DNA of 64,000 nt from NCBI GenBank assembly GCA_030600555.1, contig JAUVLW010000001.1, positions 6,411-70,410 on the forward strand. Direction: 5' to 3'. Below are positions 387 through 46,463 of the stretch, in pieces. The notes under the pieces were generated by a model. That model saw nothing but the letters and a program-made list of their open reading frames with translations. It had not been told where the DNA came from and made no database searches. Within the stretch, counting starts at the first letter, position 1. Each line of letters begins with the position of its first letter. Source of the stretch: Candidatus Aenigmatarchaeota archaeon (lineage in GTDB: Archaea; Aenigmatarchaeota; Aenigmatarchaeia; QMZS01). A program made the translations under genes and the position numbers.

Positions 387-574
387 GCTTCAGTAGCTCA
401 GCAGGTAGAGCATCTGGCTGTTAACCAGGAGGTCGAAGGTTCGAGGCAACCCTTTTCAAGGTAATTGTTGAAAAAGGTCTGCACCCCAAAAATGCTCATC
501 TTTAGATGGCACCCCTTTTTGCATCGCAAAAAGAAGGACTTAATTGGGGTGAAATGAAAATCCTTCCTGAAGCG
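387..574 (+). tRNA. tRNA-Asn (anticodon GTT) with ~115 nt intron inside the T-loop
   Basis: Read directly from sequence: acceptor GCTTCAG / CTGAAGC plus discriminator G; D-arm GCTC-AGCAGGTA-GAGC; anticodon arm TCTGG-CTGTTAA-CCAGG; variable loop AGGTC; T-stem GAAGG (435-439) / CCTTC (562-566). The T-loop TTCGA|..|AT is interrupted by 445..559. The region is GC-rich in an AT-rich background. Exons: 387..444 and 560..574. Confidence 0.75.
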
Positions 575-1553: not shown

Positions 1554-2000
1554 CTATTTTTTATCAGTGCTTCCAAAACCCCCCCGACTATTTTCATCAA
1601 GCAAATCTTTATCATGAATTATATTTAAATCAGGCTTTTCAAATCTCAGGAACACAATTTGCCCTATTCTCTCGCCTTTTTCAATAATAGCTTCAGTTTC
1701 CCCAAAATTGTATAAATTTAGTTTTATTGAGTCTTCTTTTCCGCAGTAATCAAGGTCAATAATCCCCACAGAATTTAACATCATCAGGTTTTTCTTCACA
1801 GGGAGAGAACTTCTTACAAATAGAGAGACAAATATATTTTTATTGTTGAGTTTAACTATCATTCCCGTATCTACCACTTTGCTTGTCTTTGGGGAAATTT
1901 TTAGAGTTTCATTTGAGCATATATCATAACCCACAGAATTCGGTGTTTTGTAGCCAATATCATCAATTCCTTCAGGTACGTAAATTGTTCCTTCTTCCAT
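1554..2000 (-). CDS. dut: dUTPase / dCTP deaminase family protein
   Basis: GIIDLDYCGKEDSIKLNLYNFGETEAIIEKGERIGQIVF matches the dUTPase/dCTP deaminase beta-barrel motifs. The ORF-track N-terminus (to 2075) overlaps tRNA-Glu exons, so the start is moved to an internal Met (MEEGTIYV at 2000, or MLLIMEEG at 2012). Confidence 0.75.
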   Translation of the reverse strand: MEEGTIYVPEGIDDIGYKTPNSVGYDICSNETLKISPKTSKVVDTGMIVKLNNKNIFVSLFVRSSLPVKKNLMMLNSVGIIDLDYCGKEDSIKLNLYNFGETEAIIEKGERIGQIVFLRFEKPDLNIIHDKDLLDENSRGGFGSTDKK

Positions 2001-2011
2001 AATTAAAAGCA

Positions 2012-2244
2012 TGCTCCCGCCGGGATTCTCATATACCCTAAAATTACTTTTTGGGGTGCAGACCTTTTTCAACAATCACGCTGAAAAGGGTTGCTTTGAA
2101 CCCGGGTCACCGGCTGTCTCCATGTCATAGACTTTGCGTCTCATACCTTTCTTTATTAACCAATTTCTTGGTTCGGGTGTCGGCCTTTTTTTAAAGGCTG
2201 ACTTCGAAAGGCCGGGATCCTGGACCGAGCTAGACTACAGGAGC
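2012..2244 (-). tRNA. tRNA-Glu (anticodon TTC) with two introns: canonical 37/38 position (~89 nt) and T-loop (~69 nt)
   Basis: Minus-strand read: GCTCCTG-TA-GTCT-AGCTCGGTCCA-GGAT (classic tRNA-Glu D-arm); anticodon stem CCGGC/GCCGG with loop CTTTCG|A; variable TGAC; T-stem CCGGG/CCCGG; acceptor 3' CGGGAGC + A. Exons: 2244..2205, 2115..2096, 2026..2012. Introns: 2204..2116 and 2095..2027. Confidence 0.7.
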
Positions 2245-2360
2245 ATAAATATTTAATTATTAATTTTTTAAAAGGTGGGTAAACAGCTTTATTGAGTATA
2301 TTCAAATAATTTTATAGATTGCCAGACCTCTATATATTTTATCTGGCTGAGATACAGAAA

Positions 2361-6402: not shown

Positions 6403-7593
6403 TTAACAAAAATCAAATATTCTTCTTTGGGTTAATAGTTTGCTTTTTTTATTGTATTCTTCAATAGGAAGTCTTAATTTTGCGTTTAAGAAATTGAACA
6501 GTTCATTTAAATTTGTAAATTTATCATAGTTTAGTTTGAAAGCATTTCTTATCCCTTCCCTGACTTCCCACACCCCAACAGGAATTTCATATCCTTCGTG
6601 AATTTCTCTTATCACAATTGCTCTTGCTTGCTTTTTCATTCTTAACAAACCCTCGGCAACAGCGAACCTTGCGGCGTAATAACCCCCGCTCTGTGAAATT
6701 GCGTATTTTTTCCTTCCTCCGCATCCTTCATGTTCTATAGTTACACTCGGTTCTTTTCCCTGAAGGTTCCATAAAGTACCCGGGAACCAGGATTCAAATT
6801 GTTCAAATTCCCAGTTTCCCGGAATCAGGATAATGTAATAATAGTTATCAAGATAATTGTTTGTGAATAAAAAATATTCATTAACAGAATCAAAGTCATT
6901 TATTTGTTTTATAAAATGTTTCCCTAACAAATCATCCATTGCTGTGATGCTCCATCTTGTTGGCACAATTTTCTTTTTTACCCCGAGAACCCCTGAACTC
7001 AGAATTTTTGAAATCTGTGAAACTTCAAATTTTGAGTTGTAGAATTCTATTGCGGCGTCATTTGCTTTCATTTCCCCGTCAATCAGACCATAAACTTTTT
7101 TTGTGATTTTAGGATTATCCACCAGTTTTATTTTATTTACTTCCCCGCTCGCTCCCATTGGCTGAGTGATTGTTGAGAATGATTGCAAGAATGAAGGTTT
7201 CTTTGAGAAATTGATTTCCAGGTCCACAGGTTTTATTGAAAGAGTTATGTCCTGCAACTCCTGAATATATCTGTCTTTTGTGAAAATATTTTTTTTCAAT
7301 TTACCCCTTACAAGAGAATATCTGTCTTTGACAATGCTGTTAAGATCCATACCGTACATTTTTTCAGGTGTATCTTGTCTTTCAAGATTGGACTCATTCA
7401 GTGAAATCATAGGTCCGACTAATAAATTAGGATATCCTTCATGACCAACAAAAACAGATTTTGGGGAAGGTCCAAACAAAGTTTCCTTGATTTTTGGGGT
7501 TGAGATTTTTTGGTAATATATTTTTGTCAGCAATGGGCATTTATCCCTCCCACACAATTTTCTTACTCCTTTGCAGATTAAACATAAGTTCAT
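6403..7593 (-). CDS. hypothetical protein with N-terminal Cys4 zinc-ribbon motif (possibly Nre-family DNA-repair-associated protein)
   Basis: N-terminus CLICKGVRKLCGRDKCP is a CxxC..C..C motif. ~396 aa. The Nre assignment is from memory only. Confidence 0.35.
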   Translation of the reverse strand: MNLCLICKGVRKLCGRDKCPLLTKIYYQKISTPKIKETLFGPSPKSVFVGHEGYPNLLVGPMISLNESNLERQDTPEKMYGMDLNSIVKDRYSLVRGKLKKNIFTKDRYIQELQDITLSIKPVDLEINFSKKPSFLQSFSTITQPMGASGEVNKIKLVDNPKITKKVYGLIDGEMKANDAAIEFYNSKFEVSQISKILSSGVLGVKKKIVPTRWSITAMDDLLGKHFIKQINDFDSVNEYFLFTNNYLDNYYYIILIPGNWEFEQFESWFPGTLWNLQGKEPSVTIEHEGCGGRKKYAISQSGGYYAARFAVAEGLLRMKKQARAIVIREIHEGYEIPVGVWEVREGIRNAFKLNYDKFTNLNELFNFLNAKLRLPIEEYNKKSKLLTQRRIFDFC

Positions 7594-7655
7594 AAATTTT
7601 TACTGATATAAATTAAACAAATGGTATTTGTTTTTAGGTTATAAGAGAAATTTAT

Positions 7656-8678
7656 TTAAGCATAACCCGTATAATCATTTTTAGGAACATTTATTTTTTG
7701 AGGTAAAAGGTTATTTTCATTTAAATATAAATCCGGGTCATTTAGAAAACCCAATCCAATACCATAATAATCTGAACCAGGTAAGATTTTTATCTTGTCG
7801 CCTTTTTTCAGAAATATCGCAACTTTGTAGGGATTAACTACAAGGGTAGATTCATCTAAAGGCTGGGTTGGTTGCACATCAAAATACACAGCTTCTGATT
7901 GATAACCTTTGTTCTTAAGAATATGTTCTGCTATTTCTAAAGAATCATATTGGACTTCTGCAATGGATTTATTGATTTCAGGCAATTCAGTTTCATTATT
8001 TTTAAGTTCCGCAATTTTATTTATTATTTGTGTGTCTTTTGGAGCGACGAAAGCGTATTTTAATTTATTATTGGGATTAGTTTCGTTAGTTGTATACACA
8101 AGGAATTTTTCAACACCTATAGGTATTGGAACTGGTATTGTTGGATGCAATGCCATCTTTTGACTTTCTATTATATTGGAAAATTCAAGTTTATTATAAT
8201 CTTCTTTATTAATTGAAATTTTGTCTAAAACTTTTATTTTTCTTAAAGAGTCAATATCTTTAAAATCAATATATTTCAGATATTCGCGTGTTTTTTTATC
8301 GGTTTTAAACAAACCTTTGTCTGCGTTTATTTCACTTTCTCCAACTAAAGCATATATGAGTCCCGCCACATTTTTTACAGGACTTAAAGAATTTTCTGAT
8401 AAATACAATGATGAAATAACATCATCTTTATATTTTGCCACTTCAAGTTTATTTATTTCTTCTCCAGCAGTCTCAAGAAAGGTTTTAATGCAACTATTGT
8501 TTTTGTTTGATTTATTGTATATTATTGAACCTAATTGCTGTAATTCGGTTTCTGTTCCAGGAATAATTGAGCTATAAACCGTTTTTTTTGTTAATAATGA
8601 TTTTGCGTTTCCGCTTAAAAAAATTGCATTATTTTCGGGGTCAAATCCAATTCTATCTATTTTTATTCTCTTTGACAT
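7656..8678 (-). CDS. hypothetical protein
   Basis: Long ORF with good coding structure. The start is trimmed to the Met after the upstream gene's stop (the ORF track extends to 8840, overlapping 8707..9930). Confidence 0.45.
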   Translation of the reverse strand: MSKRIKIDRIGFDPENNAIFLSGNAKSLLTKKTVYSSIIPGTETELQQLGSIIYNKSNKNNSCIKTFLETAGEEINKLEVAKYKDDVISSLYLSENSLSPVKNVAGLIYALVGESEINADKGLFKTDKKTREYLKYIDFKDIDSLRKIKVLDKISINKEDYNKLEFSNIIESQKMALHPTIPVPIPIGVEKFLVYTTNETNPNNKLKYAFVAPKDTQIINKIAELKNNETELPEINKSIAEVQYDSLEIAEHILKNKGYQSEAVYFDVQPTQPLDESTLVVNPYKVAIFLKKGDKIKILPGSDYYGIGLGFLNDPDLYLNENNLLPQKINVPKNDYTGYA

Positions 8679-14554: not shown

Positions 14555-15599
14555 TTATAATGAATATTCCCAGATTCTTTTTTCTTTTGGAGTTCTTATG
14601 TTGGAGACTTCACCGCAAATATCTTTCAGAAATAATTTTTTTATCTTCTCCACATTATAATCAGGATAATTTCCCAAAATCCACATTAATTTAGTCATTG
14701 CGGTTTCGCTAATCATGTCATGACCTGGAATTGCTCCGGCATCCAAAGCCTTTTTGCCGCATTCATAAAGGTACATCCACGAGAAACCAATTGCGCACTG
14801 TGAAGACACAACAATTGGAATTCCTTTTTTCACAGCATTTTCTATTTCAGGCACAAGAGAATTTTCATCAATAGGAACATTACCCGCCCCAAAACCTTCC
14901 AAAATTATTCCTTTGTATCCAAGCTCTATTAAATTAGAGATTATTTTTGGATCGAATCCAGGCGTTATTTTTAGTACGCAGACTTTTTCCTCAAGTTTAT
15001 TAAAATATTTCAGTTCACTGTTTTCTTTTTTGAAATGTTCTCCTGTTAATCTAATATCATGTTCAATCACGCCCAATGGCAACATACCTATACTTTCAAA
15101 TGCTTCAAATTCCACTTCCCTGAATTTTTTGGTTCTGTTTCCTCTCAGAATCTTGCTGTTAAATACAATCATCACTTCGCATATATTTGTTTCTGTGGCA
15201 ATGCGAACTGAATCCAGAATATTTCTTTTTGAATCAGAACCCAGCATATGCGGAGGAACCTGTTAACACAATAGGTTTTGATAAATCCTGCAATAAGAAA
15301 GACAAGGCTGATGCGGTGTAATGCAGGGTATCAGTTCCATGAGTAATCACAAACCCATCATATTCAGAATAACTGTCTTTAATTGTTTTGGCGATTTCAA
15401 CCCAGTGTTTTGGCTGCATATTGGATGAGTCAATATTGAGTAAATCAATGGTATTAATATCCGCCAAATTCTTTATTTCAGGAATAAAATCCAGCAATTC
15501 AGTTTCATTGAATTCCCCGGGTCTCCAACTCCCGTTAACCATTTTGGCAGTAATTGTCCCTCCGGTTCCAATAAACAGAATTTTCTTCTTTTCCATCAT
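14555..15599 (-). pseudogene. ansA: L-asparaginase (type I) gene interrupted by a frameshift
   Basis: 15599..15234 encodes the N-domain (FIGTGGTITA, VITHGTDTL, PIVLTGS) and then hits a stop. The C-domain (SDSKRNILD..., GIILEGFGAGNVP) continues in a different frame from ~15247. Confidence 0.7.
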
Positions 15600-42763: not shown

Positions 42764-43639
42764 ATGGAGTGGTATGTATTTGCTTTTGCCTGCGCTTTTG
42801 TGGTTTCACTTGCCGCCATAACCGAAAAAAGAACATTAATCAAAGAGCATGCAATGGAATTCTCCACAGTTCTTGCAATATTCAACTTTATATTATCCAT
42901 CCCTTTATTGGTCTTTGCGGATTTTAGCATATTTTATAACTCAATAGATTTGCTTATTTTAATTTATTGCGCCTCGCTTCTTGGAAGTATTGCTTTTCTG
43001 TTAATTGCGAAAAGCATGAGACATATGGATATTTCAAGGGTATCCCCATTACTTAATTTCAGTCCTGCTGTAGTGGCTGTATTGGCATTTGTACTTTTAG
43101 GTGAAAAACTTACTTTGATTCAAATATTTGGTATTGTGATCCTCATGATTGGCGCTTATCTGTTAGAATCAAAAAATGGCATGAAAACTTTTTCAAAAAC
43201 AATGAAAGAGTTTACGACTTCAAAATATATTTTTTATATTGTTATTTCTTTTTTTCTCTATGGTTTAAGTTCAATAATTGATAAGTATTCCCTTGGGTTT
43301 ATGACTCCTGTTACTTATCTGGCAACCCTGCAATTTTTTATAGCAATAAATTTTATTGTGATGATAAGTCTATTTCATAATGGGGTCTCTGGAATAAAAA
43401 ACGGGATTAATAGAGCCGGGAAATGGATATTCCTTGTTGCTGTATTTACTGTATCTTATAGACTTCTGCAGTTGCAGGCAGTATCAATGGCATATGTAAG
43501 TCTGGTAATACCAATTAAAAAATTAGGAACTCTTTTTTCAACAATAATCGGAGGTAAAGTGTTCCATGAAAAAGATTTATTGAAAAAAGGTATTGCCTGT
43601 CTGGTTATGCTTATTGGGGTGTATTTGATAGTTATCTGA
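42764..43639 (+). CDS. EamA/DMT-superfamily transporter
   Basis: 10 TM helices. ..VLLGEKLTLIQIFGIVILMIGAYLL.. is typical of EamA domains. Confidence 0.7.
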   Translation: MEWYVFAFACAFVVSLAAITEKRTLIKEHAMEFSTVLAIFNFILSIPLLVFADFSIFYNSIDLLILIYCASLLGSIAFLLIAKSMRHMDISRVSPLLNFSPAVVAVLAFVLLGEKLTLIQIFGIVILMIGAYLLESKNGMKTFSKTMKEFTTSKYIFYIVISFFLYGLSSIIDKYSLGFMTPVTYLATLQFFIAINFIVMISLFHNGVSGIKNGINRAGKWIFLVAVFTVSYRLLQLQAVSMAYVSLVIPIKKLGTLFSTIIGGKVFHEKDLLKKGIACLVMLIGVYLIVI

Positions 43640-44726: not shown

Positions 44727-45419
44727 TCATTTATTAAGGTAATATTTTCTCTTAGTTTCATCAAATTTTTCAATTGAATACCGCAACATTGTCCTTGGCA
44801 TGGTTTTATGGTATTTTTCAAGGAAAGTTTCCTCTGTTTTTTGGTCTCTTTTTCCGATTTCTCTCAGCATCCACCCAACCGCTTTGTGGATTAAATCGTG
44901 GTTGTCGTTTAGGAGAATTTCTGATATTTTTAGGGTATCTTCAAATTCGTTGTTTTTTATGAATGTATGTGTTGAGATTATTGAAATTCTTTTTTCCCAC
45001 AGGTTTTTTGAGTTGGCGAGTTTGTATAGAATTTTTCTGTCTTTGTTTAGGAGGTAGTTTCCAATAATATGGGGGGCTGAGATATCAACCAAATCCCAGT
45101 TATTGATATTGGTTGTGTTCTTCAGGTAAAAGTCAAATATTTTTTTCTTTTCGGTTTCATCTGATTTCCTGTATTTGTCAATGAGTATAAATAAGGAACA
45201 TGCCCTGTATTCGTGGATGTTTGTTGATAATAATTCCTGCAATTCTTCAAGGGATAAGTTGATATATTTCTTTGCAATCTTTCTTTGCTCGGGAACAATG
45301 ATTCCAAGAAAAGTATCTCCTTCTCCATACTCGCCTTTTCCAGTTTTAAAAAATCTTAGATAAACTTTTGCTTTCTCCGGGTTTTTTAGGGATTGGAGTT
45401 CTTGTTTTAGTGTTGGCAT
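44727..45419 (-). CDS. DNA alkylation repair enzyme (AlkD/AlkC HEAT-like repeat family)
   Basis: ..NNWDLVDISAPHIIG...LWEKRISIIST...HDLIHKAVGWMLREIGK.. is the AlkD-family pattern. Confidence 0.75.
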   Translation of the reverse strand: MPTLKQELQSLKNPEKAKVYLRFFKTGKGEYGEGDTFLGIIVPEQRKIAKKYINLSLEELQELLSTNIHEYRACSLFILIDKYRKSDETEKKKIFDFYLKNTTNINNWDLVDISAPHIIGNYLLNKDRKILYKLANSKNLWEKRISIISTHTFIKNNEFEDTLKISEILLNDNHDLIHKAVGWMLREIGKRDQKTEETFLEKYHKTMPRTMLRYSIEKFDETKRKYYLNK

Positions 45420-45509
45420 AATATTTTTGACATATTAATTTAGTTGTGGGTTGATGAACCCACTTATTTTTCAAGCAGACAATTTTTACCTTCCAGCATA
45501 AAAAATAAA

Positions 45510-46463
45510 TTATGCGCGGGAAGATGGTTTAAGCAGTTGTTTGTAAAAGGATATGTTGATTGTTTCCCCCTCAATATCTTCAATATATCTTGTTATGTCA
45601 TCCAGATAATTTTGGATGGTTTTATTATTAATCTGCGAGATAAGATTATTTATTTTTTTGAAGTCACTATCTTTTGTCTTTTCAAAAATTTTAGATGTTT
45701 TATGGATGAGATGACTTATAGTTCCGTTAAGTTTATATTTAATAAATGTTAAAATTTCTTTTTTGTTTTCAAAACAGGTTTCATGTTTATTTAAATATTC
45801 TCCGAGTCTGTAAAGATCATCTCCAATATTCTCTAATTTCTTGCTTATCAAAAAATATGAAGGAATCAACGATGTATTTTTTATTTTTGATGAATGCAGA
45901 ATCTTTGAATCTGTAAGCGATAATGAAATAAGTTTTGTCCCCAGATGATATAATCTGTCAATTTCATTTTCATTTATTCTTATTTCTTCAATATCTATTT
46001 CATTTAAAATGTTTGAAAGAGATAATTCAAGTATGGTATTTATCCGGTAAAATATTTGGTAAATGGTGACTTTTGATTCGTCCAGCAGTATTTTTAGGGT
46101 AATCTTTTTATTGTCTTCATAGGTTATTTCAGTCCCGCTCATATGCGCCAGAGTTTTTCTGATTTTTGTTTTGACTTCTTTTGTCAACTCTTTTTTGGAA
46201 TATAGATTGATATTTTCAATTCCAAGGTAATATAATACAAATACAATCTGGTCGATATTATTGAGGTATTCATCAATATTCAGGGAAATCTCATCCATTT
46301 TTTTTCTTTTGATTAAATGAGAAGACAAGAGCAATGTTTGGTTATCTTTTTCATAAATCAATAGTTCATCTTTTTCTTTTAATTTATTCTTTTTAACCCA
46401 TTCCTTTGGCAATGAAATGGAATAAGTGCTGCCCGCAATCAATTGTATTTTTCTCCTGTGCAT
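45510..46463 (-). CDS. phoU: phosphate uptake regulator, AbrB/SpoVT N-terminal domain fused to PhoU-like domain
   Basis: The N-terminal RKIQLIAGSTYSISLPKEWVKKNKLKEKDEL is a swapped-hairpin AbrB/MazE-like domain. The rest is a helical PhoU-like repeat region. Divergent from pstS. Confidence 0.6.
   Translation of the reverse strand: MHRRKIQLIAGSTYSISLPKEWVKKNKLKEKDELLIYEKDNQTLLLSSHLIKRKKMDEISLNIDEYLNNIDQIVFVLYYLGIENINLYSKKELTKEVKTKIRKTLAHMSGTEITYEDNKKITLKILLDESKVTIYQIFYRINTILELSLSNILNEIDIEEIRINENEIDRLYHLGTKLISLSLTDSKILHSSKIKNTSLIPSYFLISKKLENIGDDLYRLGEYLNKHETCFENKKEILTFIKYKLNGTISHLIHKTSKIFEKTKDSDFKKINNLISQINNKTIQNYLDDITRYIEDIEGETINISFYKQLLKPSSRA

Follow-up and report, generated by a model that had tools for sequence, protein, structure and literature searches.

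In the present work, we identified a tRNA-Glu(UUC) gene with two introns in a 64,000-nt stretch of contig JAUVLW010000001.1 (hereafter the window; 64 kb) from the Candidatus Aenigmatarchaeota assembly GCA_030600555.1. The gene very probably is a single functional unit from which the splicing endonuclease EndA removes two protein-spliced introns, one at the canonical position 37/38 of the anticodon loop and the other in the T-loop at 59/60. Its three-exon anatomy is plain from the sequence, the two intron positions are conserved among relatives, and the helices at the junctions as well as a hairpin within the introns covary.

The gene and its orthologs

Joining of the three exons (40 + 21 + 14 nt) gives a 75-nt RNA prior to CCA addition, which ARAGORN classifies as tRNA-Glu(ttc), with stems of 7, 4, 5 and 5 bp; removal of the two inserts restores a canonical cloverleaf. 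The RNA begins with G1 at 2244 and ends with the discriminator A73 at 2012, CCA not being encoded. The initial annotation had proposed a 233-nt tRNA-Glu gene with a canonical and a T-loop intron, and the cloverleaf formed by the exons together with a layout that is kept in synteny bears it out. Its description of an anticodon loop CTTTCG|A split by 89 nt (2204..2116) likewise agrees with the sequence. For the T-loop intron, the length of 69 nt stands, while the coordinates 2095..2027 shift to 2094..2026 upon comparison, and exon 2, given as 20 nt, is corrected to 21 nt (2115..2095) by the 59/60 register. In the unspliced window, tRNA-Glu was found neither by ARAGORN, even with introns allowed, nor by Rfam. 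This silence on the raw window is expected for a T-loop intron and is thus no evidence against the gene.

An exact match to the dph5 protein of the window was not on record; the dph5/tRNA/dUTPase neighbourhood was taken from other assemblies via dph5 homologs (fetched loci carry L numbers), and the same three-exon layout recurred in five independent ones (L039, L040, L043, L044 and L045), which makes it more than a chance arrangement. In L039, whose dph5 is 95% identical, all three exons match the window base for base, with introns of 48 nt (37/38) and ~118 nt (59/60) as against 89 and 69 nt in the window. The more distant L043, L044 and L045 (dph5 73-75% identical; one of them is NCBI assembly GCA_023659975.1) have their introns, of 126 and 41 nt, at both of these positions. 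Here, compensatory changes have altered the acceptor stem (GCUCCUG/CGGGAGC to GCCCUUG/CAGGGGC), the anticodon stem (CCGGC/GCCGG to CCGCC/GGCGG) and the T stem (CCGGG/CCCGG to CUGGG/CCCAG). Across the orthologs, intron length therefore varies from 48 over 89 to 126 nt at 37/38, and from 41 over 69 to ~118 nt at 59/60. The last 20 nt of intron 1, AAGUCUAUGACAUGGAGAC, are nevertheless kept. Besides, the spliced products of four orthologous or paralogous Glu genes were called tRNA-Glu by ARAGORN, and the tRNA-Glu(CUC) genes of L017 and L026 have two introns as well. Constrained exons, freely varying introns and fixed positions together argue for real introns in a functional gene; by the same token, constrained exons next to free introns speak against an assembly artefact, a pseudogene, or two features separated by a spacer.

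The gene sits between dph5 and a dUTPase gene, whose ATG at 2000 lies 12 nt past the tRNA. Upstream, a TATA-like box (Table 1) may serve as its promoter; in L039, a related motif, ACCTTTAAAAAA, lies 25-36 nt upstream of G1, five bases farther out than the box in the window. A T-run downstream is a candidate terminator. The longest mechanical open reading frame (ORF) for the dUTPase, 1554-2075 (-), begins at a TTG within intron 2 of tRNA-Glu, and a gene caller could mask the tRNA through this overlong ORF. The real dUTPase start is likely the ATG at 2000, judging from the resulting length (148 aa; 147 aa in orthologs).

The host is an Aenigmatarchaeota-like (DPANN) archaeon, to judge by the content of the window. 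The stretch has 33% G+C and encodes the archaeal markers L15e, S4e, S19, aIF2-gamma, Nre, DUF1512, Dph2 and Dph5. Among named organisms, its diphthine synthase comes closest to proteins from metagenome-assembled genomes (MAGs) of Candidatus Aenigmatarchaeota, at ~61% identity, and it is 73-95% identical to other metagenome proteins.

Table 1. Features of the tRNA-Glu locus, further features of the window, and EndA genes of two fetched loci (window coordinates unless a locus is named)
Feature	Position	Strand	Description
tRNA-Glu(UUC) gene	2012..2244	-	233 nt, three exons and two introns; basis: ARAGORN on spliced product, syntenic orthologs
Exon 1	2205..2244	-	tRNA positions 1-37; acceptor 5' strand, D arm, anticodon stem 5' strand, loop to G37; GCTCCTG-TA-GTCT-AGCTCGGTCCA-GGAT-C-CCGGC-CTTTCG
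Intron 1	2116..2204	-	89 nt, canonical 37/38; hairpin module variant in 5' block
Exon 2	2095..2115	-	tRNA positions 38-59, 21 nt; anticodon stem 3' strand, variable loop, T stem 5' strand, T-loop UUCAAA; A-GCCGG-TGAC-CCGGG-TTCAAA
Intron 2	2026..2094	-	69 nt, T-loop 59/60; module, then ACCCC...GGGU helix, then UGAG-AA
Exon 3	2012..2025	-	tRNA positions 60-73; U60, T stem 3' strand, acceptor 3' strand, discriminator A; T-CCCGG-CGGGAGC-A
3' splice motif, intron 1	2115..2121	-	GGAG (2121..2118) with C32-U35 (2210..2207) as helix H; bulge A-C|A38 (2117..2115), then anticodon stem
3' splice motif, intron 2	2025..2031	-	UGAG (2031..2028) with U54-A57 (2100..2097); bulge A-A|U60 (2027..2025), then T stem
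Module, canonical form	2049..2094	-	GCA-AC-CCUUUU...AAAAGG-UC-UGC, then ACCCCAAAA; starts at base 1 of intron 2; 60.2 bits, z -4.5
Module, variant form	2170..2203	-	in intron 1; GUC-AG-CCUUU...AAAGG-CC-GAC, then ACCCGAA; 31.5 bits, z -5.1
TATA-like box	2264..2273	-	TTTTAAAAAA; 20-29 nt upstream of G1; read from sequence
T-run	2005..2008	-	4-7 nt past discriminator; read from sequence
tRNA-Asn(GUU)	387..574	+	one 115-nt T-loop intron, 446..560 (59/60); module 446..491
EndA, L005	3986-4864	-	292 aa; one PF02778 + PF01974 unit
EndA, L006	5475-6368	-	297 aa; one PF02778 + PF01974 unit

Structure of the splice sites

Under the bulge-helix-bulge (BHB) rule, the cut follows the second nucleotide of a 3-nt bulge, and two such bulges are spaced by a 4-bp helix. 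For a 37/38 intron, the rule predicts that positions 32-35 pair with intron bases -6 to -3, and this is the arrangement seen in intron 1, where CUUU pairs with GGAG (helix H). In a comparison of 31 columns over 11 anticodon-loop introns of the lineage (from Glu, His, Gly, Leu, Tyr and Lys tRNAs), 100% of the cells of the anticodon stem plus H were paired and eight of nine pairs covaried; position 34 and intron base -5, for instance, form C-G, G-C, U-A or U-G. None of 500 shuffles matched this register, and slid registers paired in 34-53% of cells. The T-loop behaves alike: in the register of intron 2 (UUCA/UGAG), 98.8% of cells are paired over 18 T-loop introns, position 57 is engaged in A-U (7), G-U (7) or G-C (4) pairs, and a rare C55 in L026 is paired with G. 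Structural prediction, which the initial annotation had proposed as a check on both junctions, together with the comparison reveals at either 3' site one half of a BHB motif, with a covarying stem, a 3-nt bulge and a 4-bp helix.

By sequence alone, the T-loop junction could be placed at 57/58, 58/59 or 59/60 because A runs lie on both sides of it; the helix register fixed by the 18 T-loop introns places the cuts at 59/60. A junction at 58/59, or a helix shifted by 1-3 bases, was rejected, as such slid registers leave 30-62% of cells paired vs 98.8%. The free minimum-energy fold of intron 2 of the window prefers a shifted 3-bp helix, a register that is not conserved. For intron 1, the junction is ambiguous between 37/38 and 38/39, and the motif fits 37/38. 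A strict BHB via GUCA/UGAC near the 3' end of this intron is possible in the window and weakened in the L043 ortholog, and was discarded.

On the 5' side, the two introns are built differently in that four unpaired bases precede the hairpin of intron 1, whereas the hairpin of intron 2 starts from its first base and is separated from H by a second helix, ACCCC/GGGU. Both introns of tRNA-Glu are of the relaxed hBH type rather than the strict hBHBh' type, which alpha4 and alpha'2 enzymes lacking a specific loop generally accept.

The splicing endonuclease

A Methanocaldococcus jannaschii EndA sequence, used as a search probe only, matched two Aenigmatarchaeota MAG loci that harbour the same intron family (L005 and L006). 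In both proteins, a Lys-rich low-complexity N-terminal extension of ~120 residues lies ahead of a single catalytic unit, and among solved structures both come closest to the M. jannaschii alpha4 enzyme (1a79) and the alpha subunit from Nanoarchaeum equitans (3iey_A). The stretch that separates the catalytic Tyr from the catalytic His contains GVKLKRGPKSVREH, which aligns with GVIPKKGKRSEREH of N. equitans and represents a 6-residue Lys/Arg insertion relative to M. jannaschii. This basic insertion may correspond to the 'L3' loop of Kaneta et al. (PMC5829648); DPANN alpha4 EndAs with an L3 loop have been linked to tRNA gene disruption (PMC5829648). The initial annotation reasoned that the endonuclease of this genome must accept non-canonical sites, which is reasonable given the precedent of 59/60 hBH introns in ARMAN-2 (PMC3239211). 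It further named epsilon2 or alpha2-beta2 forms of EndA as types that accept relaxed BHB motifs. The EndA of the related MAGs is not a three-unit epsilon2 enzyme, nor could it be assigned to the alpha2-beta2 class; a beta partner may exist beside the single-unit protein of L005 and L006.

Proposed processing and alternative explanations

Taken together, these data suggest the following route. The gene would be transcribed as a single precursor of ~233 nt, in which each 3' junction comprises an exon stem (anticodon or T), a 3-nt bulge with the predicted cut, and then a 4-bp helix in which intron bases -6 to -3 pair with positions 32-35 or 54-57 of the loop. The 5' cuts would fall two bases past this helix, immediately ahead of the conserved intron hairpin, in keeping with a relaxed hBH motif. 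EndA would cleave both hBH motifs, the canonical 37/38 intron probably leaving first, by analogy with a studied case (PMC5829648). An RNA ligase would then join the exons, and CCA would be added. EndA cleavage and exon ligation of the tRNA-Glu precursor are thus predicted steps.

Several points weigh against this reading. The strict hBHBh' motif is not formed, in that enforcing H leaves the 5' cut in a multibranch loop, and the enforced BHB register costs 2.6 (intron 1) and 5.3 kcal/mol (intron 2) over the free minimum. None of the 60 ORFs of the 64-kb window contains the EndA domains PF01974 or PF02778. The single-unit EndA of the lineage, with its basic insertion, might tolerate relaxed sites, and excision of the introns and the existence of a mature tRNA-Glu are predictions from sequence comparison.

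Could the gene instead be dead, broken by a small palindromic mobile element and devoid of any tRNA product? The inserts do hold a repeated hairpin module that is also found between genes and in either orientation, and relatives differ by its presence or absence. However, the exons of L039 equal those of the window in spite of the large indels by which the introns differ, distant orthologs retain every stem via compensatory changes, and the helices of the loop introns covary. Moreover, all tRNA genes recognised in the window and the fetched loci hold at least one intron, so that equating insertion with inactivation would leave the lineage without tRNAs: over ~270 kb of fetched loci, most of which were selected for the module, ARAGORN (introns allowed) reported only intron-containing tRNAs and not a single intron-less one. 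A dead gene is therefore very unlikely.

Even less probable is a tri-split tRNA, i.e. three separately transcribed pieces joined in trans, the 'introns' being spacers with promoters in their hairpin loops. These loops are AT-rich and TATA-like, and Nanoarchaeum and Caldivirga are known to have split and tri-split tRNAs (PMC4033280), yet the pieces are contiguous, co-oriented and ordered in all orthologs, and the gene is bordered by a single TATA-like box at the usual distance and a single downstream T-run. A parse with an intergenic spacer between separate features, put forward in the initial annotation as what would speak against its two-intron gene, is not supported, on these same grounds. 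The spacers also fold onto the adjacent exon loops exactly like cis introns, and exons of 14 and 21 nt are very short for independent transcripts. Lowest of all we rate removal without EndA, e.g. by a self-cleaving or self-splicing RNA built on the hairpin. Sequence conservation of the hairpin well beyond the needs of a BHB helix, and the absence of a matching known family for the module, would be in line with such an RNA. Against it, group I and II introns are far longer than the 69-89 nt seen here, Rfam gave no match to a ribozyme or intron family over the gene at E <= 10, the cut sites lie where the BHB rule predicts, and ortholog introns lacking the module (intron 1 of L039, intron 2 of L043) occupy the same sites with only the BHB half-motif left. 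EndA-mediated removal of two introns from one functional gene consequently is the reading we adopt.

A hairpin module shared between introns and intergenic DNA

Both introns of tRNA-Glu contain a hairpin module of ~46 nt, made up of an outer helix of 3-4 bp (GCA/UGC), a small internal loop, an inner stem CCUUU/AAAGG that is often extended, a variable AT-rich loop, and the tail ACCCCAAA. A covariance model (R1), built from the module in this analysis, matched three copies in the 64-kb window, all within tRNA introns. Intron 2 shares its first 46 nt, almost unchanged, with the beginning of the T-loop intron of tRNA-Asn, a gene that ARAGORN misses and Rfam matches in part (394-455, model positions 8-63); both tRNA genes recognised in the window hence hold T-loop introns. 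GC-rich islands elsewhere in the window were considered as hidden tRNA exons, and those inspected fall inside protein-coding ORFs.

The pairs of the hairpin covary. The outer helix of the variant module in intron 1 is compensated to GUC/GAC vs the canonical GCA/UGC, and that of the L039 tRNA-Asn ortholog has turned into UGA/UCA. Over 46 copies, 98.9% of cells are paired and seven of eight pairs show double changes, in an alignment that was fitted to R1 and whose counts therefore lean toward its structure. Folding z-scores of the hairpins range from -3.0 to -5.1. No Rfam family covers the module, and its sequence returned only unrelated primer matches in the literature. A hairpin acting solely as sense RNA would be expected to fold better on the sense strand. 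In 19 of 28 tRNA copies, the complement is equally or more stable than the sense strand, a result that is either uninformative or leans to a palindrome at the DNA level.

Matches in public collections comprise Aenigmatarchaeota MAGs, another archaeal MAG, ~23 genuine metagenome loci and two IMG/VR contigs. The latter are overlapping contigs classed as viral, with an intergenic module copy of 45 bits under R1 (L037, 1770-1806 (-); L038, 8827-8863 (-)). The module occurs in at least nine tRNA species (Glu, Asn, Met, Leu, Lys, His, Gly, Tyr and Ile) and in introns of the D-loop, 37/38, 53/54 and 59/60, as expected for a family of transposed introns. Intergenic or tandem copies were seen in L008, L012, L013, L015, L016, L020, L021, L031, L032 and L034, the tandem ones being those of L015, L031 and L034. 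The module block of intron 1 is homologous to the intergenic unit of L012 and L015 through a second small hairpin, CCAAGnAAUUGG, whereas L039 lacks this block in the corresponding intron. The best protein match of the L012 contig marks it as Aenigmarchaeota-like.

Relatives differ in module and intron content. One nucleotide past the 3' end of tRNA-Leu, L006 has a module copy (7584-7630 (-)) that is missing in the orthologous L005, and tRNA-Leu(CAA) contains a 53-nt 37/38 intron in L005 and none in L006. Repeated extragenic copies and insertion polymorphism between relatives are thus both observed, as for repetitive extragenic palindromic (REP)-like repeats or miniature inverted-repeat transposable elements (MITEs). 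A consistent target-site duplication was not visible in the flanks of the module, and a transposase was not found, no search aimed at one having been made.

In six loci (L008, L013, L016, L020, L031 and L034), the reverse-complement module stops a single nucleotide short of the ATG, each time of a different protein gene (...AAAGGGTTGCT-ATG). These copies typically occupy short spacers of tandem genes, ~26-36 nt past the upstream stop in L008, L031 and L034, and their spacing possibly reflects a promoter, a leader hairpin or targeted insertion. A promoter in the hairpin loop of the ATG-adjacent copies was also considered, but the distances do not fit consistently. Forward and reverse-complement copies meet in two long introns of the 53/54 region, in tRNA-Ile of L010 (~1420-1560) and tRNA-Tyr of L022 (~8390-8560), with the forward module at the 5' and the reverse-complement module at the 3' side; base pairing between their ACCCCAAA/UUUGGGGU tails is possible and would make the intron roughly symmetric. 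The inverted copies of L010 and L022 might be read as terminal inverted repeats of a MITE-like kind, but they are inconsistently arranged.

Overall, these observations are in line with a hairpin element, mobile or recombining, by which introns are seeded or enlarged, and the copy on the IMG/VR contigs hints that viruses of these archaea, or other mobile DNA, may carry the module as well. With considerable doubt, we put forward that the ~46-nt module (GCA-AC-CCUUU...AAAGG-UC-UGC-ACCCCAAA) might be a small mobile palindromic element of Aenigmatarchaeota-like DPANN, which enters intergenic DNA and tRNA genes.

Comparison with known systems

A tRNA-Glu with two introns belongs to a known type, for which ARMAN-2 and the Thermoproteales provide the precedents. 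The statement of the initial annotation that multi-intron tRNAs are known from Thermoproteales and some DPANN is accordingly supported by the literature (PMC3239211 for ARMAN-2, PMC4033280 for Thermoproteales). ARMAN-2 (Ca. Micrarchaeum acidiphilum) has a 59/60 hBH intron in pre-tRNA-Cys(GCA) and introns at both 53/54 and 59/60 in pre-tRNA-Pro(GGG), and its epsilon2 EndA cuts strict as well as relaxed BHB substrates in vitro (PMC3239211). Shared with the present case are the DPANN host, a T-loop intron at exactly 59/60, the relaxed hBH motif, more than one intron per tRNA, and tRNA gene disruption accompanied by an EndA of broadened specificity, which here is presumed for the related MAGs. The enzymes differ, in that ARMAN-2 uses a three-unit epsilon2 form with its own ASL loop, whereas the EndA of the related MAGs consists of a single N+C unit. 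Also in contrast to ARMAN-2, from which a shared hairpin module was not reported, the combination found here is 37/38 plus 59/60 in tRNA-Glu.

The same isoacceptor is disrupted in Methanopyrus kandleri, whose pre-tRNA-Glu(UUC) contains a canonical intron and a non-canonical D-loop intron (PMC5829648). In either species, a 37/38 intron is hence combined with one of relaxed motif, yet the second intron resides in the D-loop (HBh') there and in the T-loop (hBH) here, and the lineages differ. The M. kandleri enzyme is an (alpha-beta)2 form without a specific loop, unlike the EndA of the MAGs related to our window.

In Thermoproteales, a single tRNA may contain as many as three introns, and different tRNAs have introns of the same families (Sugahara 2008; Fujishima 2010, as summarised in PMC4033280). 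As with these transposed introns, related sequences occur here in different tRNA species and positions, which argues for spread within a lineage. The phylum and the sequence family are others, however, and the ~46-nt hairpin is also extragenic and present in both orientations; for Thermoproteales, we found no report of a hairpin outside tRNA genes or in both orientations.

REP/MITE-like repeats are imperfect palindromes of small size, their arms being conserved and their loop variable, which lie in the intergenic spacers of tandem genes and form tandem copies. Like the bacterial representatives, the module is repeated, resides in spacers, occurs in tandem and differs in presence between relatives. 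Unlike bacterial REP elements, it belongs to an archaeal host, and its copies in the window are confined to tRNA introns. Literature on tRNA introns in Aenigmatarchaeota was not found.

Further observations in the window

Two observations concern other parts of the window. An asparaginase/GatD-like gene is split into 14555-15247 and 15234-15599 (-), with a 14-nt overlap; one ORF corresponds to the N-terminal half of the Pfam family Asparaginase, the other to the rest plus Asparaginase_C. The split could be due to a frameshift, a sequencing error or a pseudogene. Besides, weak sub-threshold Rfam matches to C/D-box small nucleolar RNAs (E 1.8-7.7) were obtained at 45915-45984 (+), 42832-42927 (-) and 45406-45480 (+), which could represent archaeal C/D small RNAs or chance.

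Implications

The two tRNAs of the window were missed by standard finders, so that genomes of this lineage will appear short of tRNAs as long as the search models lack T-loop introns. The two-intron tRNA-Glu adds Aenigmatarchaeota to the DPANN lineages with multi-intron tRNAs, and the pairing of this trait with a single-unit EndA that carries a basic insertion bears on the co-evolution of substrate range and tRNA gene disruption. Should the module indeed be a mobile element, its insertions into tRNA genes would survive where the flanks form a half-BHB that can be cut by a relaxed EndA. The tRNA-Glu gene, with one copy in each intron, would then represent a snapshot of intron gain or growth by an element acting at the DNA level or through reverse splicing, and the precise placement of reverse-complement copies 1 nt ahead of start codons would point to a second use, in regulation. 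Either way, the module offers a searchable handle on an old question, namely the gain of tRNA introns in archaea and their movement from one gene to another.

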